Assembly (NCBI GenBank): GCA_016188495.1
Contig: JACPHU010000009.1
Span: forward strand, 13,650-77,649
Length of the DNA: 64,000 nucleotides
Origin: Candidatus Uhrbacteria bacterium
GTDB lineage: Bacteria > Patescibacteriota > Patescibacteriia > UBA9934 > GWF2-40-263
Reading direction: 5' to 3'
Made by a program: the position numbers and the translations under genes. Within the stretch, counting starts at the first letter, position 1. Each line of letters starts with the position of its first letter. This document shows, one piece after another, positions 43,826 through 54,867 of the stretch. Under the pieces are notes generated by a model. That model saw only the letters and a program-made list of their open reading frames with translations. It had not been told where the DNA came from and ran no database searches.

Positions 43826-44254
43826 AGTTCATACATGATAACAAAAATTACCTAGAGTTCTAGGTGATTTTTGTGGTGAGCCCAAGGAAGGCTGTCATGA
43901 ACTACCTCGAACGAGCACGCGAGCTCATGCCAGTTATGATGGGATGGAATCGCGACGTTGCAGGGTTTTTGGAGCGTCCTCGTGGCATCCAGAGCCTTGT
44001 GGTGACGTACTAATGCGACGTATTATTGGAGGCATCAATCAAAACATAAACCTATGGGAACAGAACGAAAAGACGCCTTGATCAATGTGGTGCAACATCT
44101 GCCCGCAGCAGCGCAACGTCCAGCCGATAAACCAGCAGGGACGGTCGTTACGAGTAGTGGCGAGCGTGTCACATTGGGCGAGAAGCCGAGTCACAACACC
44201 GCCATACTCTCTACTCAACAGCGCATGAACACAAAGAAGCAGGGATAATGAGAT

Positions 44255-44677
44255 ATGCAAAGCCACTTTGTGATAGACCCATCCGTAAAAGATCAATTTG
44301 TAGAACTCCGAGCGCAAGGCATGAGCTTTGCGTCGATTTCGTCGCGCCTTAACGTCTCGAAAGGTACGCTCGTCGCGTGGAGCAAGGAGTTGAAGGACGA
44401 ACTCGGTAACATGCGACAAATCCAGCTTGAAGCCATACGTGAGAAGTTCCGCATGGGCTCGCAGCGTCGCATGGAGCTATTCGTCAAGCAGTTGGATGCC
44501 GTGGAAGGTGAACTGGCCACTCGCACCCTCGACATCGTCTCAACGGAAAAACTATTCGATATGCTTGTGAAGCTCGGCCATGAGCTTAACGCGACCGATG
44601 CACCGCTTACGTTCAAGGAACAATCAAAGGAGTTCGTTCTCGACGACATCGCGTGCATGTCTGTTTGGGAAGCATAG
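44255..44677 (+). CDS. HTH DNA-binding protein (phage/ICE-type regulator or terminase-small-subunit-like)
   Basis: 140 aa with HTH QGMSFASISSRLNVSKGTLVAW. Confidence 0.5.
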   Translation: MQSHFVIDPSVKDQFVELRAQGMSFASISSRLNVSKGTLVAWSKELKDELGNMRQIQLEAIREKFRMGSQRRMELFVKQLDAVEGELATRTLDIVSTEKLFDMLVKLGHELNATDAPLTFKEQSKEFVLDDIACMSVWEA

Positions 44678-44827
44678 AAAAATTTGAACATTCCTGTACG
44701 AAAAATGACCGTCCTCGCGGCGGTTGTTTTGATATTTTGAAACGTTCATCAGATGCCAGTAAATAAAAAGAGCGCATCCGACGAGACGTAAGCCGAGTGG
44801 CTCTTGCCCCGCGCGGATGCGCGAGTG

Positions 44828-45439
44828 TCACTTGAGGTGGATCAACTCCATACCGCTCGCTTCCATGTCCGAGTCGTCGGTATGAGTGTCTCCACCCTCG
44901 ACGAGCACAGAGGAATAGTACCCATCGCCACGCCCATACGAGTCGATGAACAGCTTGTGGCCGTTCTCGAACTCGATGACGAGTGCCACGCCGTTCTGCG
45001 TCATGGCAACCACATGGCCGTTGCCAGCGAGTGCGAGTTGCTTGGACAAGAAGGCGGAGACGGCCTCCGCGTGCTGTCGTGCGGCCTCTTCGTGCCTTCG
45101 TTTCTCCTCGTCCTTCCGCCATTGCTCGTTCTTGGCCTTCGCACTCGCATTGGTCAGGGTCATGTGGACACCGACCTTCTCGACCTCGTGCCACCCGCCG
45201 CCTTCGATCTTCTTCCGCTGCTGTTTGACCATGCGCGGCCGCTTGACGATGATTTCCTCGACCTCAGGACTCCCGTGCTGGATGCTGCGGTTCTTCCCGT
45301 CCATGATGAGTCGAGACACGTCTCCACCGTCTGATGCAAGGACGAGCTCCTCGCCCTCAACGCAAGCCGAGGAGACCATCTGCCGCCCAAGAACCCATCC
45401 GCCCTTCCCGATTTCCGCAATCAACTCCTGAATGTCCAT
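44828..45439 (-). CDS. Hypothetical protein (~203 aa)
   Basis: Start MDIQELIAEI preceded by SD gaggag. Competing same-region frames have Leu/Arg-rich, low-complexity composition typical of GC-rich noise. Confidence 0.45.
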   Translation of the reverse strand: MDIQELIAEIGKGGWVLGRQMVSSACVEGEELVLASDGGDVSRLIMDGKNRSIQHGSPEVEEIIVKRPRMVKQQRKKIEGGGWHEVEKVGVHMTLTNASAKAKNEQWRKDEEKRRHEEAARQHAEAVSAFLSKQLALAGNGHVVAMTQNGVALVIEFENGHKLFIDSYGRGDGYYSSVLVEGGDTHTDDSDMEASGMELIHLK

Positions 45440-45570
45440 GATGACTCCTCGGTATATGTGTGAGAGGTGGTATGCCTGCAAGTGAAAGAAACGACTGAAA
45501 AATATACCACAAAACAGCCTTTTGTCAATGGCCGCATGGTCGTTTTTGTGATAAAATGGCCTAAAATCCT

Positions 45571-47286
45571 ATGGAACAGCCAAATACAGACATACAACGC
45601 GTTGCAGAGCTCGTAGCACGCCTCCAAGCCCGTTTTGGTGCTCAAGGCGTCGCGGATGCTGCGGGTAAGGGTGAGTCCCTTCGATACGTCATGTATGTCC
45701 GTAAGAGCACGGATACGGCCGACAAGCAGCAGCGCACCATCGGCGACCAAATCGCCTCGTGCAAGGAATACGCCGACCGCTTCGGGTTGCGTTGGACAGA
45801 GCTCATCCATGAGGAGGAGTCCGCCATGGTCTCCGATGGTCGTCCAAAGTTTCGAGCCATGCTAAACGCCATCAAGGCGGGCACGTTCGATGCCATCCTT
45901 GCATGGGCTCCAGACCGCCTTTCGCGCAACATGAAGGAAGCGGGCGAGATTATCGACATGCTCGACCGAGGCGACATCAAAGACCTCAAGTTCGCCAACG
46001 GGTTCGTATTCGCCAATGAACCGTCGGGCAAGATACTACTCGGTATCACGTTTGTCATGGCCAAGCAGTACAGCGACCAACACTCCCAAAACGTCAGGAA
46101 CGCGATTCATCGAAAGACCGCCGAAGGTAAGTGGGCAGGGGGCCGCGTTAAGCACGGCTACTACCGAAGCACCGCGCATTACCTTCTTCCCGACGGCGAG
46201 AACCATGAGCTCATCAAGGACGTCTTCCGCCTTCGTCTTGAAGGCACGCCGCAGAAGGACATCGCGGCATACCTCATCGAACGCGGCTATCCCGTCCAGA
46301 CGCCGCATACTAAGCATCGCAAGCTCGTCATCGACGACAAGTTCGTCTCGGATATCCTTCACGACGCGTTCTATGTCGGCGCCATGAAGTTCAGTAAACA
46401 ATTCGTCAACCTATTCGACAAGTACGACTTCGTGCCAGCAGTCTCGATCGACGACTTCGAGCGACTCTACAAGAGCGAGGGCGAGAAAATGGGAATCGAC
46501 CTCAAGAAAATTCTCAATCCGCGTGTACAGATCAAGGCCGCGCTCATGCAACAATTTGTTACATGCGGACGATGCGGAAAGTTCATGTCAACGGGCATTA
46601 CCAAGGGCAAATACTATTTTCGTTGTGATTCACCCAAGGCCGTCTTCCCGATGCATGGCAAGTCTACTCGTGCGAAAGTGGTACTCGACGCCTTATACGA
46701 GTTTCTGGAACATCATCCGCTCATCACCAATGCGGGCTACAAGCATTACGTCGCCGAGATGCAGCACATCCTGTCCGAGCAAAGCAAGGAAGCGGAACGG
46801 GAGTTAAAGTCGCTCGTCGCGCAACGTCAGCACGCCGAGGAGCGCATGGAGGACATGAAGGAACTTGCGCGAGGAGCAAAGGGTGACAAGGTGCTTGTGA
46901 AGGAATATCAGGCCGACATGAAGGCGAGCCTTGCAAAGGCAAAGGAACTGTCGGCACAAATTACGAAGCTCAAGATTGAACACCTCAACCCAAAGGAAGC
47001 AATCGCTACATTTGAAGAGTTCCATGAACTGTTTGCAAATCTTGCTCAACTCATACAAAAAATAGACAGCATGGCGGATTTGGATAGTATCATCAAAAAA
47101 ATCTTCATGAACGTCACGGTCACCGACCAAAAAGTCACTCAAATAACACAAAACTCCCCTTTCAGGGAGCTGTGTGTGGACGCCGATTCGGCGATGGTGA
47201 CCCTTCGGAGACTTCCTTGGAACCAATTTATGGAAGAGTTGAGGATGTGGATGCAGTTTCAGGAAATGTGTTTGGCTGAAATGTAA
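45571..47286 (+). CDS. Large serine recombinase (integrase)
   Basis: Resolvase catalytic domain YVMYVRKSTDTADKQ (nucleophilic Ser) and APDRLSRN, a recombinase domain, a Zn ribbon CGRCGKF...FRCDSP, and a C-terminal coiled coil. Confidence 0.85.
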   Translation: MEQPNTDIQRVAELVARLQARFGAQGVADAAGKGESLRYVMYVRKSTDTADKQQRTIGDQIASCKEYADRFGLRWTELIHEEESAMVSDGRPKFRAMLNAIKAGTFDAILAWAPDRLSRNMKEAGEIIDMLDRGDIKDLKFANGFVFANEPSGKILLGITFVMAKQYSDQHSQNVRNAIHRKTAEGKWAGGRVKHGYYRSTAHYLLPDGENHELIKDVFRLRLEGTPQKDIAAYLIERGYPVQTPHTKHRKLVIDDKFVSDILHDAFYVGAMKFSKQFVNLFDKYDFVPAVSIDDFERLYKSEGEKMGIDLKKILNPRVQIKAALMQQFVTCGRCGKFMSTGITKGKYYFRCDSPKAVFPMHGKSTRAKVVLDALYEFLEHHPLITNAGYKHYVAEMQHILSEQSKEAERELKSLVAQRQHAEERMEDMKELARGAKGDKVLVKEYQADMKASLAKAKELSAQITKLKIEHLNPKEAIATFEEFHELFANLAQLIQKIDSMADLDSIIKKIFMNVTVTDQKVTQITQNSPFRELCVDADSAMVTLRRLPWNQFMEELRMWMQFQEMCLAEM

Positions 47287-47436
47287 CTAATCGTGGAATT
47301 ACTGTTTGATTGTGGAGATGGCAAATTTGAGACAATTCCAATAATTGCCCCAATTCCCAACAAACTCCAAATGATTATTTTTCGACGTATAAAATCTAAG
47401 CTTGTTTTCCAATAATCTTGCCATAAGATCGTTGTT

Positions 47437-47991
47437 TTATTTGTTCTTTTCAAGAAATAAATTTCCAGTAAGAATATAAACCAAAATTATTTTTAAACTT
47501 AATCCTAAAAGGATCAACAATATTGAAAAACCAACGAGAAAAGAGATATCGTAGAACAAAATATATTGATTGATAACCATTTTTTCTTGTGTGTGTTCAC
47601 GTATAGACCAATATCCTGAGCAATTAGTCCCAAAGATTGAGCATTCAGTGATAGGGCCATCTTTAGAACTAATTTCAGAAACAAACTTAGAAAATTCTTT
47701 TGGACATTTTTCTTCAAACCAACTTCGATAAAGACTAATTTTGTTGGTAATACTTGGTTGATTAAAACTTTCAAAAATAAAACTTTCATTTTCCTTTATT
47801 TCATTTGGAATATCCTTCTCACTCAAAACACAACCTTCTTGAGCTGGAGATTTTAATGTAATTGCTTGATATCTATACTCATTATCGAATAACTTAAGAG
47901 AAGACAAAACTAATAGAAGCGATAATCCAAGATAAAAAATTTTTAATAATCGAAACCATGGTGAACTAAAAAATCCTTTTGTTGTTTCCAT
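47437..47991 (-). CDS. Hypothetical membrane protein in AT-rich cargo (~184 aa)
   Basis: Start METTKGFF. TM at the N-terminus and near the C-terminus. A 150+ codon ORF in ~28% GC DNA is unlikely by chance. Confidence 0.5.
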   Translation of the reverse strand: METTKGFFSSPWFRLLKIFYLGLSLLLVLSSLKLFDNEYRYQAITLKSPAQEGCVLSEKDIPNEIKENESFIFESFNQPSITNKISLYRSWFEEKCPKEFSKFVSEISSKDGPITECSIFGTNCSGYWSIREHTQEKMVINQYILFYDISFLVGFSILLILLGLSLKIILVYILTGNLFLEKNK

Positions 47992-48034
47992 ATTTTCATT
48001 GTATTGACCCAGATGGAATCTTTGAGAGATCACT

Positions 48035-48187
48035 ATGCCACCTTATGCACCAGATCATAATCCGATTGAACATGTTTGGAATACAGCGAAAGGGGAAACA
48101 ACAAACATTCAACAGGAAAACTTTGAAGCAATGAAAATAACTTTTCATAATTTTATTGATGGACGAAATTTCAATTATGCAATTTAA
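48035..48187 (+). pseudogene. IS630/Tc1-mariner-family transposase C-terminal remnant
   Basis: Translates to MPPYAPDHNPIEHVWNTAKGETTN...FHNFIDGRNFNYAI, the conserved PPYSPDLNPIE catalytic-E region. No upstream DDE domain. Confidence 0.7.
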
Positions 48188-48212
48188 CAGTTTGTTTTGG
48201 GATGGCTATAAA

Positions 48213-48671
48213 TTAGAAAGAGGATATCCAACATAACTCAATTTTTTCAAAAAGTTTTTGCTGATTTTGAGATGAATTCCATTTTTTCAGATTTTCAAAA
48301 AATAAATCTTCGTAATCATTACCTGCTAAAGTATTTAAAGCTTCTAAGTAAACATGTACTTCATTATAAATAGAACTACATGAGCTAGCTTCAGTGAACC
48401 TATTATCATTTACTTGATTGATAAATTCTTGTTCTACTAAATTTAAAAATTCTTTTTTAAGCTCACCTTCATTATTTAAAGAAAAATTATTAATCTGTCT
48501 GTGAAGTTCTTTATTATCCTCATCCAATATATCTGTTTTTCCATTTAAAATAACTTTCTCAGTTTCTAGTGTACCAATTTTGTTCTTCAATATTTCAATT
48601 TCAGTGCATAAGTATGCAATCATTCCAATAAAACTGATTCCAACAATAATCCACAATAAATATTTTTTCAT
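48213..48671 (-). CDS. Hypothetical protein with N-terminal TM/signal anchor and coiled coil (152 aa)
   Basis: MKKYLLWIIVGISFIGMIAYL then a heptad-like region; AT-rich. Confidence 0.45.
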   Translation of the reverse strand: MKKYLLWIIVGISFIGMIAYLCTEIEILKNKIGTLETEKVILNGKTDILDEDNKELHRQINNFSLNNEGELKKEFLNLVEQEFINQVNDNRFTEASSCSSIYNEVHVYLEALNTLAGNDYEDLFFENLKKWNSSQNQQKLFEKIELCWISSF

Positions 48672-49030
48672 ATCTTAGTTAAAAATAATTTAATCATCAT
48701 GAGAGGTTGGCAATAAAGCCCCCAAAATCATAAGTCCTAAAAAGACTAAAATTGCATCTAAAAACATATTATTTTCTTTCTTTTAAAAACACAAAGCCCT
48801 CCGCCAGCCGCAGTCTTTCGACTGCCTGTATCCATTTCTGGGTACAGCCATCCCTGGTTGCTGAACGAAGGGTCCAGTATCAGGGATGGATTTGTGCCAT
48901 GCCTTACATGTGCAAGGTTTAGGCATCTATTTTAATTGTGAGTTTAGTGTAGAGAATTGAGACAAACATGACAAGCAAATAATCAAAAATCTTTAAAATT
49001 TAAAGGATTTTTGTTAAAATATACTCATAA

Positions 49031-49783
49031 ATGAAAATGATTATGAGAAAAGATTTAAAAGAAGAATTCGAATCTCTGATAAAAGAGGGATACGAAATTA
49101 CAAGAATTGCCGATGAAGGTCTAGAACAACACTCGGCTACCGCAACACTAATCCATGAAATTCATCATAAGTTTATAATGTGGAAACAAAGTGCGAAGGA
49201 TCTTTTAAAAGATGAGGCTAAAAATGAAGAATTAGATATTGGATTTCTATTTGAAGGAGATGGAGTACCTTTAATCAAAGCTGGACCAGAATACAGCGAC
49301 CCAATGAGTGAACGATCACAAAAATTATTTACAAACATTCGTATAGCAGCCTCCAGTCATTTGAGAAAAATAAAAGAAATTTATGAAGAGGTGGAGAAAA
49401 ATTTTAAGATTAAAAAATCATTTATTGTCAGAATTAAAAATATTTCTCTTTCCAAGGAAGATTGTTTATTAAAAATAAATGATGGTGAAAAAATAATCTT
49501 CTTTAAATCAAAAAAAGGAAAAGAAGATTTTGAAAAAGAAACCAAACAGTTTAAAATTTTGTACCATCTTTGGGAGTTTCGACAAGAAAAAAAAGGAAGT
49601 AGCATTTTAAAAAAAAGTGAAATTGTTACACTAAAAAATCTTCAAATTTGTAGTCAAAGTAAAAGTGCATCCGCAGTCAGTAAAACTATTGAGAGATTAA
49701 ATAAAAGATTTAAAAAAGAAGGGGTAACTATAGAGATAGAATGTGAAAATGAAAAATGTCGTCTAATTATAGAAAAGACCTAG
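49031..49783 (+). CDS. Hypothetical Lys-rich protein (250 aa)
   Basis: Long ORF in ~28% GC DNA. No recognised motifs. The C-terminal ~70 aa may be a winged-helix-like domain; weak. Confidence 0.45.
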   Translation: MKMIMRKDLKEEFESLIKEGYEITRIADEGLEQHSATATLIHEIHHKFIMWKQSAKDLLKDEAKNEELDIGFLFEGDGVPLIKAGPEYSDPMSERSQKLFTNIRIAASSHLRKIKEIYEEVEKNFKIKKSFIVRIKNISLSKEDCLLKINDGEKIIFFKSKKGKEDFEKETKQFKILYHLWEFRQEKKGSSILKKSEIVTLKNLQICSQSKSASAVSKTIERLNKRFKKEGVTIEIECENEKCRLIIEKT

Positions 49784-49957
49784 ACGGTTTCTTGACTATT
49801 TCTACGACATTATTTTTTTCTATTTTTTTAAAAAACAGTAGGAATTTGTAAAAAGTTTAAAAAAATTCGACATCAAAACAAATATTTAAAACTTATCACA
49901 AAAAACAGTTGCTAAAGTCGAAGTATAAAAGCTTCGATTTTTTTATTCTAAATTTTT

Positions 49958-50218
49958 ATGACTATGACTACGCACGGGATTCAAGAAAATGAAATTTACC
50001 GAACATCGGATTTTTCTCAGGCAATTGCACTTTATTGTCTTGATTTTGTTCTGGAAGCAGTTGATAAAACAACGCCAAATAGGTGTGGATTCTTGTTTAA
50101 ACGGACATGCGAACTTGATCGGGCTATCGAATGGTTCTGGAAACGTGAGCTTCGTATTGAACCTCAGGCTTATTTTCAGGCTTCTAAGGTCTTGCGGACG
50201 CGTCTACATGACCGTTAA
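49958..50218 (+). CDS. Hypothetical small protein (86 aa)
   Basis: ORF upstream of the primase gene. A second ~56-aa ORF at 50224-50394 overlaps the primase start. Confidence 0.35.
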   Translation: MTMTTHGIQENEIYRTSDFSQAIALYCLDFVLEAVDKTTPNRCGFLFKRTCELDRAIEWFWKRELRIEPQAYFQASKVLRTRLHDR

Positions 50219-50359
50219 GACCTATGCTCAGCATTGCCCGAACAAAGGAACTCATCGGCTATGCATCTATCTCGGATGAACAGGCGGAAGCTATCCGAGA
50301 CCAGTTTCGTGATCTCGCAGAATTGATTTTTATAAATTGGAAAACTAACTTGAAACAAT

Positions 50360-52249
50360 ATGACAATGAATCCTCAAACAATCCCAATTAGTGAATACCT
50401 TGACCGGAAGGGTATCGAATACCGGGAACAAGAAAACGAGCTGATAGCACGCTGTATTTTCCACGACTGTGACGATGATAGTAAAGGTATAGAGGCACAT
50501 TGGTATATCAACAAGCACACAAGCCAGTACGACTGCAAAAAATGTGGTCAACAAGGCAACATTTTTACTCTAAGAGAACATTTTGACGATCCAATGTCAG
50601 AAGTCCTTCTTGATGGTGCAAAAGCACTTAACGACCACCCTATAAAGAATGAGTTATTAAATACAGCACAAAACATCTGGAACTCATCAACACAGGTTCC
50701 CAAAGAGTTTGCCTATACGATAAAAAAGAGAATCTCTACGCACGGATCACGCTTCAAGGATGGTAATTTGGTTCTCCCAATGTATAACGGAAACGGCACG
50801 CTAATTTCTCTTCAATTCATTCAAGCAGACGGAAAGAAAAAGTTTCTGCCTGGAGGTAAAACAGTCGGGTCTTATTACATCATTGGCGAAGTGAAAGACG
50901 TTATATGTATTGCGGAAGGATTTGCAACCGCGGCTAGCATTCTTGAAGCAACAGGACATGCTGTCGCCATTGCCTTTTCTGCCGGGAATCTTAAAGCAAC
51001 GGCTCAGGCGATCAAAAACAAGTACACTAATGTAAAGCTAATTGTATGCGCGGACATTGACGATTATGGTCTTACCAAGGCCAAAGAGGCAGCTCAGGTC
51101 GTCAGTGCCTTTCTCGCTATACCTGTCTTTAAACCTGAAGAACGGATCGATGAAAAACCTCCTACGGACTTTAATGATCTGGCTATTTTGCAGAGTGCAG
51201 AAAAAGTGAAGAAAACAATCGAATCGGCAGAAAAAGTAAAAAACAAGTATCAATTCACAGCACTTGCGGACTTATTAGAGGAACCGGAAGAAAAAATTGA
51301 GTGGATCGTTGAAGATCTTCTTCCTCATGGTGGTTTCTCCATCATCGTCGCGAAACCAAAAGTTGGTAAATCTACACTGGTAAGACAACTTGCGTTTTGT
51401 GTTGCAAGCGGAAGCACTTTTCTAGGAAGAACTACGAGCAAGGGGCGCGTTCTCTACTTATCGCTTGAAGAAAAACGTAGCGAAGTGCGGAACCATTTTA
51501 GAATGCTTGGAGCAACCAGAGAGGAAGACATCGGGATTTGTTTTGATCAAACACCAGAAAATGCTCTCGAGTGGTTAAGAGAAGAAATCGATCGATCCGC
51601 GCCAGTGCTGGTCATTATTGATACCTTATTCCGATTCGCACGCGTTTCTGATGTAAATGACTATGCAAAAACACTGGCCGCTCTTGATCCGCTTCTGTCG
51701 CTTGCACGAAGTCACTCCGTACACGTTATGGGCGTTCATCACGCCAGAAAAGGTGATGGGTTTGGGGCAGATACTACATTGGGTTCAACGGCCATTTTTG
51801 GAAGTGTAGATACAGCTATCGTTTTAAAACGAACCGATAGCAAACGCACAGTCGAAACCCAGCAACGCTATGGGGTGGATATGGAACCAACCGTTCTAAC
51901 ATTTGATCCTGATACAAAACGCACCGAGTTAGGCGAAATAAAACAACAGGACGATGTTCAGGGTATCAAAGATGAGATTATTGCTTTTCTTCAATCTGAA
52001 AGTGAATCATCCACAGAAAAGACGATCACTGAAAATACAGAAGGTCGGACTAAGTTAAAACGAAAGGCTTTACGCGATCTTGTTGTCGAAGGTTTGGTGG
52101 CGCGAACAGATTCCGGAAAGAAAGGCGATCCCTACCATTATTCTTGTTCCCTTGTTCCCGCTATATATACGGAACAAGGGAACAAGCAATCGAATGATGG
52201 TGTTGAGCGAAAAACGGACGATCAAATTCTTGAAGAACTTGGTTTATAA
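50360..52249 (+). CDS. DNA primase (CHC2 zinc finger plus TOPRIM) fused to a C-terminal RecA-like/P-loop (AAA_25, RepA-like) domain
   Basis: Zn finger CIFHDCDDDSKGIEAHWYINKHTSQYDCKKCGQQG. TOPRIM VICIAEGFATAAS...VCADIDDYG. P-loop GGFSIIVAKPKVGKSTLV...LYLSLEE. Confidence 0.75.
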   Translation: MTMNPQTIPISEYLDRKGIEYREQENELIARCIFHDCDDDSKGIEAHWYINKHTSQYDCKKCGQQGNIFTLREHFDDPMSEVLLDGAKALNDHPIKNELLNTAQNIWNSSTQVPKEFAYTIKKRISTHGSRFKDGNLVLPMYNGNGTLISLQFIQADGKKKFLPGGKTVGSYYIIGEVKDVICIAEGFATAASILEATGHAVAIAFSAGNLKATAQAIKNKYTNVKLIVCADIDDYGLTKAKEAAQVVSAFLAIPVFKPEERIDEKPPTDFNDLAILQSAEKVKKTIESAEKVKNKYQFTALADLLEEPEEKIEWIVEDLLPHGGFSIIVAKPKVGKSTLVRQLAFCVASGSTFLGRTTSKGRVLYLSLEEKRSEVRNHFRMLGATREEDIGICFDQTPENALEWLREEIDRSAPVLVIIDTLFRFARVSDVNDYAKTLAALDPLLSLARSHSVHVMGVHHARKGDGFGADTTLGSTAIFGSVDTAIVLKRTDSKRTVETQQRYGVDMEPTVLTFDPDTKRTELGEIKQQDDVQGIKDEIIAFLQSESESSTEKTITENTEGRTKLKRKALRDLVVEGLVARTDSGKKGDPYHYSCSLVPAIYTEQGNKQSNDGVERKTDDQILEELGL

Positions 52250-52352
52250 CATTCTCAGACATTATAAGAAATTCTAGGAGATATCCCAATAACCTAACTC
52301 GTCTAATCCTTAATGATTTCGGTCAAAACAAAAGTGAAACAGAGGTAAATTT

Positions 52353-52976
52353 ATGGCAAGAGGCACTTGTGAGGGGCGCACAAAAATATCAATCTTTTGG
52401 CTACGACAAAAGGGATATCTGACTCCTGATATGCCTTGGCGATGGGACTCCTTGAGTTGGACAAACACTTATTCAGGCGAGAGTGCTGGGAGTTTGAGTT
52501 ATCAAATCAAGCTTGATGAGAACAAAGAACCAAACAGCAAAGTAGGGTATATGAGGTTGATGTATACCAATACGAGCGCTTGGTCGGGTGAAAAGACTGA
52601 AATTGATTACGAGATTCCTATTGTCACCACAGGATGCAATTATGGAGGCATTCGTTTCTGGTTCAGATGTCCTCTTAACGCAAACGGCGTTTACTGTGGA
52701 AGACGGATTGGGGTTTTATACAAGATTTCACAGTATTACGGTTGTCGCCATTGCGGAGACCTTGTGTATGCTGCGCAAAATGAAAAAAAGAGTTCTAGGG
52801 ACATGGTTTGCTGCCCTGATCTTGATAAAGCCCACGACAATATCAGACGCTTCCATTACAACGAAAAGCCGACGAAAAAGTACAGAAAATATCTCAAATT
52901 GGAGCAAAAATTTAATGATCAGATCCAGGGATGGATGATTCGCATGGCTTCAGATGATAAAGATTTTGTGCTATGA
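52353..52976 (+). CDS. Hypothetical protein with a Cys4 zinc-ribbon (207 aa)
   Basis: CPLNANGVYCGRR...CRHCGDLVY. Confidence 0.45.
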   Translation: MARGTCEGRTKISIFWLRQKGYLTPDMPWRWDSLSWTNTYSGESAGSLSYQIKLDENKEPNSKVGYMRLMYTNTSAWSGEKTEIDYEIPIVTTGCNYGGIRFWFRCPLNANGVYCGRRIGVLYKISQYYGCRHCGDLVYAAQNEKKSSRDMVCCPDLDKAHDNIRRFHYNEKPTKKYRKYLKLEQKFNDQIQGWMIRMASDDKDFVL

Positions 52977-53139
52977 TACAAGTGTTGACCCAATGCTTTC
53001 ATGCCCGTTTTTTGATCATTTTTGTTGTCCATAATGGGCGGCTTCTGCCAACAAAGTGGTCTTCGGGCTATGCGTTGGGTCAACCAGAGCCGCCCTTTTG
53101 GTTATTAGGATGTAAGAAATTGTAAGATACATAGATCAC

Positions 53140-54684
53140 ATGAAAGCCATCATCTACACACGTGTTAGCTCTAACGAGCAGGTTAAAGGAACCTCACTCG
53201 AAGACCAAGAAACCAAATGTCGAGAGTATTGTGCTCAAAAAAACATTGAGGTTTTGAAAGTTTTTCGAGAAGAGGGTGAGTCTGCCAAAACTGCGGATCG
53301 TACCGAGTTTTTAAGAGCTTTAGAATTTTGTCGAAAGAATAAAAGTAAAGTCGATATTTTTGTTGTGGTTAAAGTGGATCGCTTTGCTAGAAATACAGAA
53401 GACCATTTTGGAGTACGTAAAATTCTACTCGACTACGGTGTGTCTTTGCATTCCGTCACCGAACCAATAGGAAACAGTCCAGTTGAAAAGCTACTTGAGA
53501 CCGTTCTTGCTGGCACAGCAGAATTTGATAATGCAATCCGCTCACAGAGAAGTATTGATGGGATGATCGCACGCGTTCGACAAGGCATCACACCTTGGAA
53601 ACCGCCGATTGGATATTTAAGTAACCAATCAAAAAAACGAGGAGAAAAGAAAAACGAACCTGACGAAATAGATCCTGCAATTTTCCCCATTATTCAACGA
53701 ACACTAAAGCGTTTTTCCAGAGAGGAGATTGAGCAGTCGGAATTATGTGCTTATTTGGATCAGGAAGGTCTATCAAAAATTCGAGGTCGAAAAACTACCA
53801 AACAGATGGTTGAAAAAATTATCGGTCAGTATTTGAAATTTTACGCTGGTATAATCATGAACCCTTGGCTTGAAGGTGAAGAGATCAGGGGATTGCATCG
53901 TGCGATGATTACCGAAGACGAAATGCATCAGATTATCGCCATTCGGACAGGTAAATATATTAAGAAACAGCCACGTAAGAGTTTTAACCCACTTTTTCCT
54001 CTAAAGAAAACAATCGTGTGTGGAACCTGTGACGGAAACCTCACAGCAAGTCGATCAAAAGGGAATGGGGGAGAGTACGGTTACTATCACTGCTACAGTC
54101 CGTCTTGTGAGATGCGAAATAGAACAATTGCGAAAGATATTGTGGAAAGGGAATTCATTCAGCTTTTACAAACTCTGAGACCAAGCAGACAGCATCTATC
54201 TCTACTTCGAGAAACTGTTATGGATCTTTGGGAGGAAAAAAGAGAATTATTTGAATCGGATGCGAGTAAATTTAAGAAACAACTCGATTCCCTCACAGTT
54301 AAGCGTCAGAGAATTTTTGATATGCGTGAGGACGGTTCGTATACCAAGGAAGATTTTTTGGAACGTAAAGCTGAGATCGATAATGAAATGGCCGCAGTTC
54401 GTATATCGTTGAATGAATCCAAGATTGATCAATTTGATATTGAAGCAGCGATCACTTACGCAACGAAGTTCGTTGAGAACCTTGATCGTCAATGGGTGGA
54501 TCTAAAAGATGATCTCAAACCTCGGTTCCAAAAACTGATTTTTCCAGAAGGAGTTCTTTATTTTAAGGATCATGGTTTTCAAACCACGAAATTGTCGCTG
54601 ATGTTACAACAAAAAGAGACCGCTCGTGATGAGCAGTCCCTTTTGGTGACCCCACGGGGAATCGAACCCCGATTTACAGGATGA
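53140..54684 (+). CDS. Large serine recombinase (integrase) overlapping tRNA-Glu
   Basis: MKAIIYTRVSSNEQ (nucleophilic Ser), VKVDRFARNTEDH, recombinase domain, Zn ribbon CGTCDGNL...YYHCYSPSCE, coiled coil. Its last ~41 nt overlap the 3' part of tRNA-Glu on the opposite strand. Confidence 0.85.
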   Translation: MKAIIYTRVSSNEQVKGTSLEDQETKCREYCAQKNIEVLKVFREEGESAKTADRTEFLRALEFCRKNKSKVDIFVVVKVDRFARNTEDHFGVRKILLDYGVSLHSVTEPIGNSPVEKLLETVLAGTAEFDNAIRSQRSIDGMIARVRQGITPWKPPIGYLSNQSKKRGEKKNEPDEIDPAIFPIIQRTLKRFSREEIEQSELCAYLDQEGLSKIRGRKTTKQMVEKIIGQYLKFYAGIIMNPWLEGEEIRGLHRAMITEDEMHQIIAIRTGKYIKKQPRKSFNPLFPLKKTIVCGTCDGNLTASRSKGNGGEYGYYHCYSPSCEMRNRTIAKDIVEREFIQLLQTLRPSRQHLSLLRETVMDLWEEKRELFESDASKFKKQLDSLTVKRQRIFDMREDGSYTKEDFLERKAEIDNEMAAVRISLNESKIDQFDIEAAITYATKFVENLDRQWVDLKDDLKPRFQKLIFPEGVLYFKDHGFQTTKLSLMLQQKETARDEQSLLVTPRGIEPRFTG

Positions 54685-54718
54685 GAACCTGCTGTCCTAA
54701 CCGTTAGACGATGAGGCC
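54644..54718 (-). tRNA. tRNA-Glu (anticodon CTC)
   Basis: Minus strand ggcctca-tc-gtct-aacggtta-ggac-a-gcagg-ttCTCat-cctgt-aaat-cgggg-ttcgatt-ccccg-tggggtc-a-CCA. U33 and A37 are present; the acceptor stem has two G-U pairs. Confidence 0.7.
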
Positions 54719-54867
54719 TTGAAGGAAGATTTATTGGAACGTGCCGAGAATATCATGAGTCTCGATCTTTTTCAAGATTCAAAAAACCACTTAATTTCTT
54801 CATGTACCTACGGACAGACAGGCGCGTCTGACATCCAATTGAGAACGTCCTATGATATAATGATCTT

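Follow-up and report, generated by a model that had tools for sequence, protein, structure and literature searches.

Morons and superinfection-exclusion (Sie) genes lie beside the integrases of temperate phages, as the lactococcal Sie2009 and the Streptococcus thermophilus TP-J34 Ltp proteins illustrate, together with Imm of T4. Phages also use structured RNAs as read-through leaders, such as the lambda PR' 6S/tR' leader that works with Q, the nut/boxB sites that work with N, and the put RNAs of HK022. Integrase genes that contain their own attP attachment (att) site are known from Myxococcus phage Mx8 (intP/intX) and Sulfolobus SSV1 (int), which are all tyrosine recombinases, and targeting of tRNA 3' ends is a habit of tyrosine integrases that is unusual for serine integrases. 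Here we analyze a stretch of 64,000 nucleotides (the window) of contig JACPHU010000009.1, the proteins of which match a metagenome-assembled genome (MAG) of Candidatus Uhrbacteria (Candidate Phyla Radiation [CPR]/Patescibacteria; NCBI accessions MBI24733xx). Our subject is an AT-rich block (47204-49950) that lies in an integrative element, element A, and contains a copy of the LOOT RNA. The explanation that we favor, with a probability of roughly 0.55, is that this block is the LOOT-led accessory, moron-like arm of a tRNA-Glu serine-recombinase element and carries envelope-level exclusion or defense cargo.

The LOOT motif comes from a screen of metagenomic intergenic regions by Weinberg et al. 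2017 (PMC5737381) and entered Rfam in release 14 (PMC7779021). Rfam types it as 'Gene; sRNA' (small RNA) with unknown function, and its model ends at helix P5. In the literature that we searched, LOOT appears as a database or method example only, an orphan family from metagenomes given without organism, context or function, and we did not find its extended structure, its leader position or its pairing with a gene slot described there; the supplement of the discovery paper was outside this search and may hold some information on function or context. LOOT was also absent from an earlier note on the block, although it is the organizing feature that heads the minus-strand genes.

The LOOT RNA and the gene slot behind it

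LOOT lies behind a promoter-like site and carries a pseudoknot supported by covariation, and the gene that follows it is almost always co-oriented, and usually predicted to be membrane-anchored and unique. In the window, it forms an islet of 51% GC that separates a 152-aa from a 250-aa gene. The parts of the RNA and of the unit behind it are given below (P1 and P2 denote proteins, as does P3 further on; helices of the RNA are always named as such).

48926-48974, minus strand: putative LOOT promoter and 5' leader, from a promoter scan
48810-48925, minus strand: LOOT RNA (Rfam RF03000), helices P1-P5, from cmscan
48785-48809, minus strand: LOOT 3' tail beyond the Rfam model, from alignment A1 of 111 LOOT sequences
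48690-48767, minus strand: candidate micro-ORF (open reading frame) of 25 aa, MFLDAILVFLGLMILGALLPTSHDD, hydrophobic, from direct reading of the sequence
48213-48671, minus strand: P2, 152-aa ORFan, first long gene after LOOT
47437-47991, minus strand: P1, 184-aa ORFan membrane protein, second gene of the LOOT-led unit

The LOOT copy scored 74.3 bits with cmscan (gathering score 46.4, E = 4e-12) and matched model positions 1-121 of 121. Like 110 other copies, it has helices P1-P5, the CCUAAAC/GCAUGG internal loop and GNRA-capped helices P4 and P5. After the end of the Rfam model, the loci share the tail consensus CUGGCGGGGAGCUUUUUGU. In the window this tail reads GGCUGG-CGGAGGGCUU, which is the 3' strand of the pseudoknot (48803-48794), followed by the U-tract CUUUGUGUUUUU (48796-48785). 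The 5' strand is the apical loop of helix P3, GGACCCUUCG (48875-48866), and CCCUUCG pairs with CGGAGGG. When the 10 pairs were scored in the 111 sequences, 90.8% of the cells were paired compared to 73.3% in column shuffles (0 of 500 reached the observed value), and slid registers gave 43-66%. Double changes occurred in 10 of the 10 pairs, with a covariation score of 0.67 versus 0.32. On the 5' side, the putative promoter consists of a -35 box TTGTCA (48974-48969), a 17-nt spacer and a -10 box TACACT (48951-48946). The leader ACAATTAAAATAGA (48939-48926) follows 6 nt after the -10 box and abuts LOOT. In the 111 loci, -10-like hexamers peak 19-26 nt before the first base of LOOT, and the ACAAY(UKAAU) leader is present at most 30 nt upstream in 77 of 109 loci versus 2 of 109 in a control window.

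The 11-nt receptor of the GAAA tetraloop is CCUAAG/UAUGG. The invariant internal loop of LOOT (CCUAAAC/GCAUGG) closely resembles this receptor and the loop of helix P4 is nearly always GAAA (48895-48925 in the window), which suggests, by analogy, a tetraloop-receptor tertiary contact within LOOT, or oligomerization. In addition, the LOOT sequences of loci L126, L129, L130, L237, L240, L194 and L182 are near-identical from helix P3 onward while their helix P2 hairpins are wholly different in sequence and length; this hairpin is a hypervariable module inside the RNA.

All LOOT loci were gathered with one strict sequence pattern, a caveat that applies to every locus statistic given here. This pattern identified 10 stretches in IMG/VR and at least 119 in GTDB contigs taken at one genome per species, and 115 of the 129 matches (10 from viral contigs and 119 from the genome collection, the latter among those listed) fold as LOOT. 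An initial loose pattern produced mostly chance matches in viral contigs, among which L032 and L043 alone were real.

The next gene downstream is co-oriented with LOOT in 103 of 110 loci compared with 45 of 112 for the upstream gene (Fisher p = 1e-18) and with 70% for the other adjacent ORF pairs of these loci. Measured from the U-tract, the first possible start codon is at a median of 37 nt and, in 62% of the loci, at 40 nt or less, which leaves too little space for a separate promoter. From this gap, the co-orientation, the promoter position and the tail we infer that LOOT and the next gene are co-transcribed. The first downstream gene is mostly 100-400 aa long and encodes at least 1 predicted transmembrane (TM) segment in 73 of 103 loci (71%) versus 218 of 951 other ORFs. 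The TM segment is N-terminal in 58 of these 103 first genes and in 148 of the 951 other ORFs (odds ratio 7.0, p = 1e-18), and 59 of the 103 (57%) are singletons.

Where the genes in this slot can be annotated, they are most often superinfection-exclusion/immunity, DNA methylase or candidate defense genes. Pfam labels comprise Imm_superinfect (2 genes), Lipoprotein_Ltp (1), N6_N4_Mtase (6) and tRNA_anti-like (3), along with nucleases, surface Ig-like proteins and peptidases. PHROG places slot genes in 4 superinfection-exclusion/immunity families (4, 3, 2 and 1 genes; best E values from 1e-58 to 1e-23), and PADLOC labels them as PDC-S11, PDC-S18 and methyltransferases. The sister Uhrbacteria element of L184, which shares the backbone of element A (homologue of the 207-aa protein, helicase, primase and DUF5659), has a 631-aa DNA methyltransferase in the slot.

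LOOT hosts are overwhelmingly CPR bacteria (Saccharibacteria, Uhr-, Levy-, Moran-, Pacei-, Doudna- and Peregrinibacteria, and others). Some LOOT-bearing MAGs are labelled Gammaproteobacteria or Bdellovibrionales, with contigs of up to a 0.9-Mb chromosome, and archaea or Firmicutes are the bins of a few short contigs. CPR-type LOOT elements are carried by a 'Gammaproteobacteria' chromosome of 886 kb (L182 and L248) and by other MAGs labelled Gammaproteobacteria or Bdellovibrionales. In the stretches compared, the LOOT tail and residues 1-60 of the ORF behind it, L159 ('Nanoarchaeia') is identical to L204, from an Uhrbacteria scaffold. The label of L159 and the Gammaproteobacteria and Bdellovibrionales labels probably reflect mistakes of binning or taxonomic assignment in public records. 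Three assemblies contain 2 LOOT loci each and LOOT also occurs in viral contigs, indicating that mobile elements carry it and that it is no housekeeping gene kept in a single copy.

The neighborhoods, counted by ORF clustering across 116 loci, contain a large serine recombinase in 60 loci (47 of these upstream and divergent), a ParB-N6/N4 methylase in 18, HsdM in 18, DUF5659 in 16, a terminase-large-like gene in 9, a small-terminase-like helix-turn-helix (HTH) gene in 9, a tyrosine integrase in 8 and a portal-like gene in 6. Recombinase genes are often located 0.1-2 kb from LOOT. The recombinases, the DUF5659 protein, the 207-aa protein and the primase of the window all have tblastn relatives in LOOT loci. 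In 8 loci, including L126, L240 and L241, a reverse transcriptase gene (RVT_1) lies a few kb or less from LOOT.

A tRNA-Glu integrative element with a foreign left arm

A large serine recombinase placed element A in the 3' end of a tRNA-Glu gene, beside an older element of the same kind, and the left third of element A is a compositionally foreign unit, with a third-codon-position GC content (GC3) of about 0.2, formed by LOOT and its flanks. Its order is the cargo arm (47204-48809), LOOT, P3, DUF5659, a 55-aa ORF, the primase-helicase, the 207-aa protein and the serine recombinase SR2. The features of element A and its surroundings are as follows.

47204-54652, no strand: element A, 7,449-bp integrative element, delimited by 9-bp repeats and a homology breakpoint
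47195-47203, plus strand: left direct repeat TGGTGACCC, attL core, the displaced tRNA-Glu 3' terminus, inside the 3' end of SR1
54644-54718, minus strand: tRNA-Glu(CUC), the integration target, which holds the right repeat (54644-54652)
53140-54684, plus strand: SR2, large serine recombinase, Pfam Resolvase and Zn_ribbon_recom, PHROG integrase (E = 5e-68)
45571-47286, plus strand: SR1, large serine recombinase of element B, the last 27 codons of which (47204-47286) belong to element A
~43900-47203, no strand: element B, older tandem element of 53% GC, which holds SR1 and a 217-aa ORF
47259-47453, minus strand: 64-codon ORF that overlaps the end of P1 and has a single predicted TM segment, of a length reached in 97% of simulations
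48035-48187, plus strand: C-terminal remnant of an IS630-family transposase between P2 and P1, antisense to the LOOT-led unit
49031-49783, plus strand: P3, 250 aa, with an N-terminal helical region and a conserved C-terminal domain predicted to be winged-helix-like (about residues 135-250)
49958-50218, plus strand: DUF5659 protein, backbone (Pfam E = 3e-9)
50360-52249, plus strand: Toprim and AAA_25 primase-helicase, replication module (Pfam, PHROG)
52353-52976, plus strand: 207-aa conserved hypothetical protein, backbone, with homologues in L184, L216, L196 and L127

On the plus strand the 9-mer TGGTGACCC, which was found by targeted comparison with the tRNA, is the tRNA-Glu 3' end, and it recurs in the same orientation at 54644-54652. 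The SR1 DNA aligns with that of the 46%-identical L209 recombinase up to ...GATGGTGACCC at the 9-mer and then diverges, and the frame of the L209 recombinase runs on into an antisense tRNA-Glu(UUC). The repeat and this breakpoint together indicate that element A inserted into a tRNA-Glu site already holding element B. The last 41 nt of SR2 overlap the tRNA-Glu gene on the opposite strand, so that its C-terminus (...VTPRGIEPRFTG) is antisense tRNA. In an excised circle (54652 joined to 47204), in which the 27 terminal codons of SR1 are in frame with the would-be SR2 tail, SR2 would end in ...LLVTLRRLPWNQ..., and the empty site would read SR1 ...GATGGTGACCC followed by CACGGGGAATCG of the tRNA. 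Because the recombinase frames cross their own att sites, integration and excision swap the protein tail (10 aa versus 27 aa for SR2). Recombinase C-termini of the form V[TA]PRG[IV]EP... encoded by antisense tRNA-Glu were seen in the window (54644-54684 and 47195-47286), in L209 (7901-7975) and in L189 (7889-7927).

Two sister elements are flanked by repeats of the tRNA-Glu 3' end: L189, with a 12-mer and a length of 5.6 kb, and L209, with a 9-mer and a length of 4.0 kb. L189 has a minimal plan of attL, three LOOT-led genes, LOOT, a small divergent ORF, the recombinase and the tRNA. LOOT was considered as attB and rejected, since in the window, L189 and L209 the att site is tRNA-Glu and LOOT lies between the repeats. 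A search for long direct or inverted repeats that could mark the element ends gave 14-nt pairs at the level of chance (D19) and one 21-nt pair without an explanation (D4). A 21-nt direct repeat (20 of 21 positions identical) at 54346-54366, in the 3' part of SR2, and at 54722-54742, just 5' of tRNA-Glu, brackets the tRNA. Both SR1 (PF00239, PF07508 and PF13408; PHROG integrase E = 7e-58) and SR2 (PF00239 and PF13408) have their best NCBIfam similarities with XisF and CcrA/B, far below the model cut-offs. In element B, the 217-aa ORF (44828-45481, minus strand) has no family match and lies where ORFs overlap in all frames, and no LOOT remnant was detected at E<=5. Host genes to the left encode glycosyltransferases and an EamA transporter, and those to the right a Na/H exchanger, PP2C and HrcA.

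The same arrangement was assembled in two further sequencing runs; the DNA runs SRR12113419 and SRR12113422, from the source groundwater community, carry the locus, and L251 and L252 span the whole arrangement. An independent assembly of the same population from SRR12113422 (Logan contig L001) breaks at 49031, the start of P3 next to the LOOT promoter region, and at 54670, inside tRNA-Glu, which is consistent with strain heterogeneity or a drop in coverage at the element end and the AT-rich arm.

The earlier note had placed an AT-rich block of orphan genes inside a mobile element, and the boundaries of element A bear this location out. The block has 29.5% GC (28.4% without the LOOT islet; the note had put it at about 28%), against a mean of 44.6% for the whole window, and 500-nt windows between about 47250 and 49999 range from 26 to 33%. 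The surroundings, described as 45-58% GC, fit on the left (49-60% at 44.5-47.2 kb) but not on the right (40-43%). The right-hand shift in composition falls between a terminator-like hairpin 3' of P3 (49914-49941) and the start codon of DUF5659. At 49888-49949 Rfam proposed STnc240, an enterobacterial sRNA, with 31 bits versus a gathering score of 55; we rejected this candidate, which is merely the post-P3 hairpin. All 3 ORFs of the note were found again at 47437-47991 (minus), 48213-48671 (minus) and 49031-49783 (plus), and its view that such long ORFs are improbable by chance agrees with a simulation of first-order Markov sequences with the dinucleotide transitions of the block: the longest simulated stop-free run was 88 +/- 17 codons, the runs in the block are 250, 201 and 153 codons, and the probability of a longest run of at least 152 was 0.002. 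The 64-codon ORF is indistinguishable from chance and may not be a gene.

The IS630 remnant is genuine, as claimed (Pfam DDE_3 E = 6.5e-6; NCBIfam transpos_IS630 E = 9e-8). It consists of about the last 43-50 residues of the transposase (profile positions 256-298 of 299, 31.9 bits versus a cut-off of 100), and the NCBIfam profile shows that an intact IS630 DDE transposase is absent at 48035-48187, where the C-terminal end alone remains. The remnant had been taken as a sign of layered acquisition. Layering in situ is disfavored, because P1, P2 and P3 (GC3 0.19-0.20) share the GC3 of the IS630 fragment (0.196), while the rest of element A is at 0.33-0.44 and SR1 at 0.66. Overall GC likewise differs, with 0.25-0.29 in the genes of the block versus 0.41-0.43 in the backbone genes of element A. 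Relatives of P3 sit in DNA of 30-36% GC. The shared GC3 and the occurrence of the P3 family in DNA of about 30% GC argue for a single imported unit that already had the IS scar inside, and the simplest reading is that cargo, LOOT and P3 were swapped in together, as one module, from an element of a CPR lineage with low GC. Flanks of LOOT loci elsewhere are barely AT-richer than their surroundings (0.40 versus 0.42), which makes the window an extreme case.

Cargo proteins, P3 and the backbone genes

The description of the two minus-strand products as membrane proteins agrees with Kyte-Doolittle scans. These predict 3 TM segments in P1 (residues 11-29, 142-160 and 161-179), with a loop of about 110 aa that contains 4 Cys, and an N-terminal one in P2 (residues 1-19) followed by a helical, coiled-coil-like region. 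A GTG-extended version of P1 reaches 48033. That these are orphan genes was right for P1, for which an exhaustive HMMER scan of 1.84 billion representatives returned the self-hit only, and for P2, whose homologue search returned P2 alone, but not for P3, which has six relatives. The absence of a recognizable domain in P1 and P2 also stood, since Pfam, PADLOC, PHROG and NCBIfam gave no usable match and placed neither protein in any Sie, defense or toxin model. Neither is a member of Imm_superinfect, Lipoprotein_Ltp or the PHROG Sie families, and their equivalence to true members is positional only. P2 has weak compositional matches to a PHROG Rz-like spanin (E = 1.2e-3), a hemolysin-annotated PHROG (E = 0.027) and V-ATPase subunit E (E = 6e-3). 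The PADLOC check that the earlier note had proposed gave no match at E<=0.1 for P1, P2, P3 or the 64-aa ORF, and P1, P2, P3, the 64-aa ORF and the 217-aa ORF had no tblastn match in 115 LOOT loci. Structure prediction, another proposed check, points to a winged-helix-like C-terminal domain in P3 (best local Foldseek matches at E = 0.17-0.4) and gave a low-confidence AlphaFold2 (AF2) model for P1, with a predicted local distance difference test score (pLDDT) of 61. As for homologues next to integrases, a P3 relative lies near a tyrosine integrase (L250), whereas P1 and P2 have no homologues with which to ask the question.

Between LOOT and P2, the ATG of the micro-ORF (48767) is 17 nt past the U-tract, and its stop codon ends (48690) 18 nt before the ATG of P2 (48671). 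The micro-ORF has no statistical support because ORFs that short are common in DNA of such composition, and since our ORF screen had a minimum of 60 aa, similar peptides in other long-gap loci would escape it. No obvious Shine-Dalgarno sequences were seen at the genes of the block. Judged by sequence and position, P1 and P2 would be accessory cargo that is ordinary in kind, with a function read from position only. The proposal of anti-phage or addiction cargo is a fair one for the slot that they occupy, since sister elements carry exclusion, methylase and candidate defense genes there; no known family can be assigned to either protein.

P3 is Lys-rich, as previously described (K+R = 20%), and its six relatives share the conserved C-terminal ~110 residues (alignment A2). 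The AF2 model from a seven-sequence alignment has a pLDDT of 82, exceeding 90 for residues 170-250, with topology H-bb-H-H-bb. The best local Foldseek matches are the winged HTH (wHTH) domains of ScpB, PurR and PrfA (~2 A over ~76 residues, probability 0.97-1.0, E = 0.17-0.4). No whole-model fold match against the PDB was significant, Pfam, PHROG and NCBIfam gave nothing usable for P3, whether wHTH or other, and a sequence-profile search of the PDB was empty at E<=5. An assignment of P3 as an OmpR-type regulator was dropped for lack of profile support, and we retain 'winged-helix-like'. In L249, 113 nt separate the closest relative (45% identity) from a divergent LOOT with a score of 96.6 bits. 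The L250 relative has DUF5659, an HTH_36 protein and a tyrosine integrase on its downstream side; upstream of it are a restriction-modification system and a divergent HTH_17 gene. The six relatives, the divergent pairing with LOOT in L249 and the DUF5659 gene in L250 argue that P3 is not orphan cargo. From the model and this context, P3 is probably a backbone DNA-binding regulator that opens the replication/integration operon. DUF5659 homologues are present in about 15-16 LOOT loci, in 14 of them upstream and divergent.

Past the last ORF of the LOOT-led unit, the sole terminator-like hairpin (47171-47152) falls outside element A. This hairpin (47152-47171, minus strand; AGCUCCCUGAAAGGGGAGUU, then UUGUGUUAUU) lies inside the SR1 coding region just beyond element A and reuses words of the LOOT pseudoknot and tail (GCUCC.../GGGGAGCUUUUGUGU); the L209 recombinase has an equivalent, CTCCCTGTTTAGGGAG, in the same place.

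Explanations for the block and comparison with known systems

In the explanation that we favor, LOOT would be a cis-acting 5' leader and not a free-standing sRNA. Transcription would start at ~48939 and proceed through LOOT into P2 and then P1, perhaps with the 25-aa and 64-aa peptides. The pseudoknot and U-tract may constitute a checkpoint (attenuator, pause or antitermination signal) or an mRNA stabilizer that lets the element express whichever gene fills the slot. P2 and P1 would act at the envelope of the carrier cell, most likely in superinfection exclusion or a defense-type function, as non-homologous analogues of Sie, Imm and Ltp, and P3, divergent from LOOT, would be the DNA-binding regulator that opens the replication/integration operon.

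Several observations weigh against this explanation. Promoter-like matches in the AT-rich region are no more frequent than expected by chance (12 found versus 13.8 expected). The U-tract (48785) lies ~113 nt from the P2 ATG (48671), farther than the family median, and a promoter-like match falls within this gap (48713-48685), from which P2 might be transcribed independently; the proposed read-through beyond the U-tract is deduced from geometry only. The functional label of P1 and P2 comes from position and nothing else, their TM segments from a plain hydropathy scan, and the antisense IS630 scar between them could signal a decaying unit. In the wider survey, at most 10 of 99 slot genes bear a Sie/immunity label, a number in which the four family counts may overlap, and LOOT precedes portal and structural genes in six phage-like loci, so the slot is not exclusively accessory. 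Finally, a 9-bp repeat is weak evidence when taken by itself, and it is its coincidence with the homology breakpoint that carries the boundary argument.

Some of these observations would suit a LOOT that acts in trans as a free-standing sRNA terminated at the pseudoknot and U-tract, with unrelated ORFans behind promoters of their own and a co-orientation that simply reflects compact genomes. The Rfam type, the terminator-like combination of a GC-rich helix and a U-run, and the ~113 nt with a promoter-like match between tail and P2 all fit, and the heterogeneous downstream functions argue against a riboswitch-type tie to one function. We consider this possible but on the unlikely side, since a start codon at most 40 nt past the U-tract in 62% of the loci leaves no room for an independent promoter, co-orientation is 94% downstream versus 40% upstream and 70% in other pairs, and it is the first downstream gene alone that is enriched in TM segments. 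Recombinases located 0.1-2 kb away could instead mean that LOOT is a host housekeeping RNA gene used as an integration target in the way of tRNA and tmRNA genes. This is scarcely credible: the att sites of the window, L189 and L209 are at tRNA-Glu, at least 1.6 kb off, with LOOT inside the repeats, and LOOT is found in viral contigs, twice in some genomes and, here, in compositionally foreign DNA.

Other alternatives concern the genes more than the RNA. If the minus-strand genes were a lysis or late cassette (holin/spanin-like) and LOOT a phage late-operon leader, element A would be a defective prophage or satellite. The weak matches of P2 to an Rz-like spanin (E = 1.2e-3) and a hemolysin-annotated family (E = 0.027) point that way, as do two small membrane proteins with a 64-codon TM ORF (itself at chance level), LOOT before portal genes in six loci and terminase-like genes nearby. 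However, the 7.4-kb element has no endolysin, structural or packaging gene, the spanin score is expected from a TM-plus-coiled-coil composition, and the labelled slot genes elsewhere are Sie, immunity, methylase and defense genes, which makes this reading improbable. Slightly less probable still is that the block is decaying, non-functional foreign DNA, IS630-scarred, in which the ORFans are remnants or spurious. P1 and P2 indeed have no homologues and an IS630 remnant between them, obvious Shine-Dalgarno sequences are missing and the structure prediction for P1 is of low confidence, but at 29% GC reading frames that stay open for 153, 201 and 250 codons are highly improbable without selection (P = 0.002), an intact LOOT, pseudoknot and promoter-like site, and an arrangement assembled in two further sequencing runs speak otherwise, and ORFans are normal for this slot (57% singletons). 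In type I systems the toxin is a small membrane peptide whose mRNA has structured untranslated regions, and the 25-aa hydrophobic ORF 17 nt past the LOOT tail recalls such toxins; the block could then be a type I toxin-antitoxin-like addiction module, with the micro-ORF, P2 or P1 as the toxin and LOOT as a structured mRNA leader. We judge this very improbable, because no antisense RNA partner is evident, the first gene is mostly of 100-400 aa and not a peptide, the micro-ORF lacks statistical support, and it is LOOT that is conserved and not the downstream genes.

A bolder extension of the leader reading, which we regard as rather unlikely, is that LOOT is a portable cis leader, made of promoter, ACAAY, five helices and a pseudoknot/U-tract checkpoint, that is common to CPR phages, where it would precede portal and late genes, and to miniature serine-recombinase islands targeting tRNA-Glu, where it would precede a hypervariable exclusion/defense slot. 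If a phage- or element-encoded factor opened the checkpoint, islands would switch on membrane or defense cargo upon infection by a LOOT-type phage, and the smallest bacteria known would possess an RNA-gated, phage-inducible defense cassette. As cargo, the AT-rich ORFans are ordinary in kind, and the unusual part is the RNA that leads them. About 110 relatives now give LOOT a host range (CPR), vehicles (compact serine-recombinase elements and phages), a fixed 5' position and a longer structure. They also suggest a role that can be tested, that of guarding access to a hypervariable slot in which membrane and superinfection-exclusion genes are enriched. In CPR bacteria, for which there is almost no genetics and phage-host and surface interactions are central, mobile elements of this type thus form a recognizable family and a place where new surface and defense genes gather. 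The tRNA-Glu-targeting recombinases, with reading frames across their own att sites, may also interest developers of serine-integrase tools.

Like morons, the block is a unit with GC and GC3 distinct from those of the adjoining element genes, lies near an integrase or regulator, and encodes small proteins with predicted membrane anchors, and true Imm_superinfect, Ltp and PHROG Sie families occupy the LOOT slot of sister loci. It differs in that P1 and P2 match no such family, exclusion being predicted from slot position only. We know of no moron headed by a conserved structured RNA of ~160 nt. A holin/spanin lysis cassette is not recognizable in Pfam matches and the ORF list, where the spanin match of P2 is weak (E = 1.2e-3) and an endolysin is absent. 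With phage read-through leaders LOOT shares, as a positional analogy, a structured RNA after a promoter, a terminator-like signal and varied genes downstream; it has no sequence or structure resemblance to them, and no antiterminator protein was identified.

With respect to large-serine-recombinase elements (the Ccr elements of staphylococcal cassette chromosomes, the XisF element in fdxN of Anabaena, and phiC31, Bxb1 and TP901-1), SR1 shares the Resolvase, Recombinase and Zn_ribbon_recom domains and SR2 the Resolvase and Zn_ribbon_recom domains, whereas the tRNA 3'-end target, the reading frame across att and the very small size (4.0-7.4 kb) set the present elements apart. As in the Mx8 and SSV1 integrases, integration alters the 3' end of the SR2 ORF and supplies tRNA-derived terminal codons, but SR2 is a serine recombinase. 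Finally, the LOOT of the window agrees with the Rfam model in its full 121-position match, helices P1-P5, the invariant internal loop and the GAAA loops, and to this model our analysis adds the ACAAY leader behind the -10 box, the 3' pseudoknot and U-tract, a leader-like position, and CPR bacteria and their mobile elements as hosts and vehicles.

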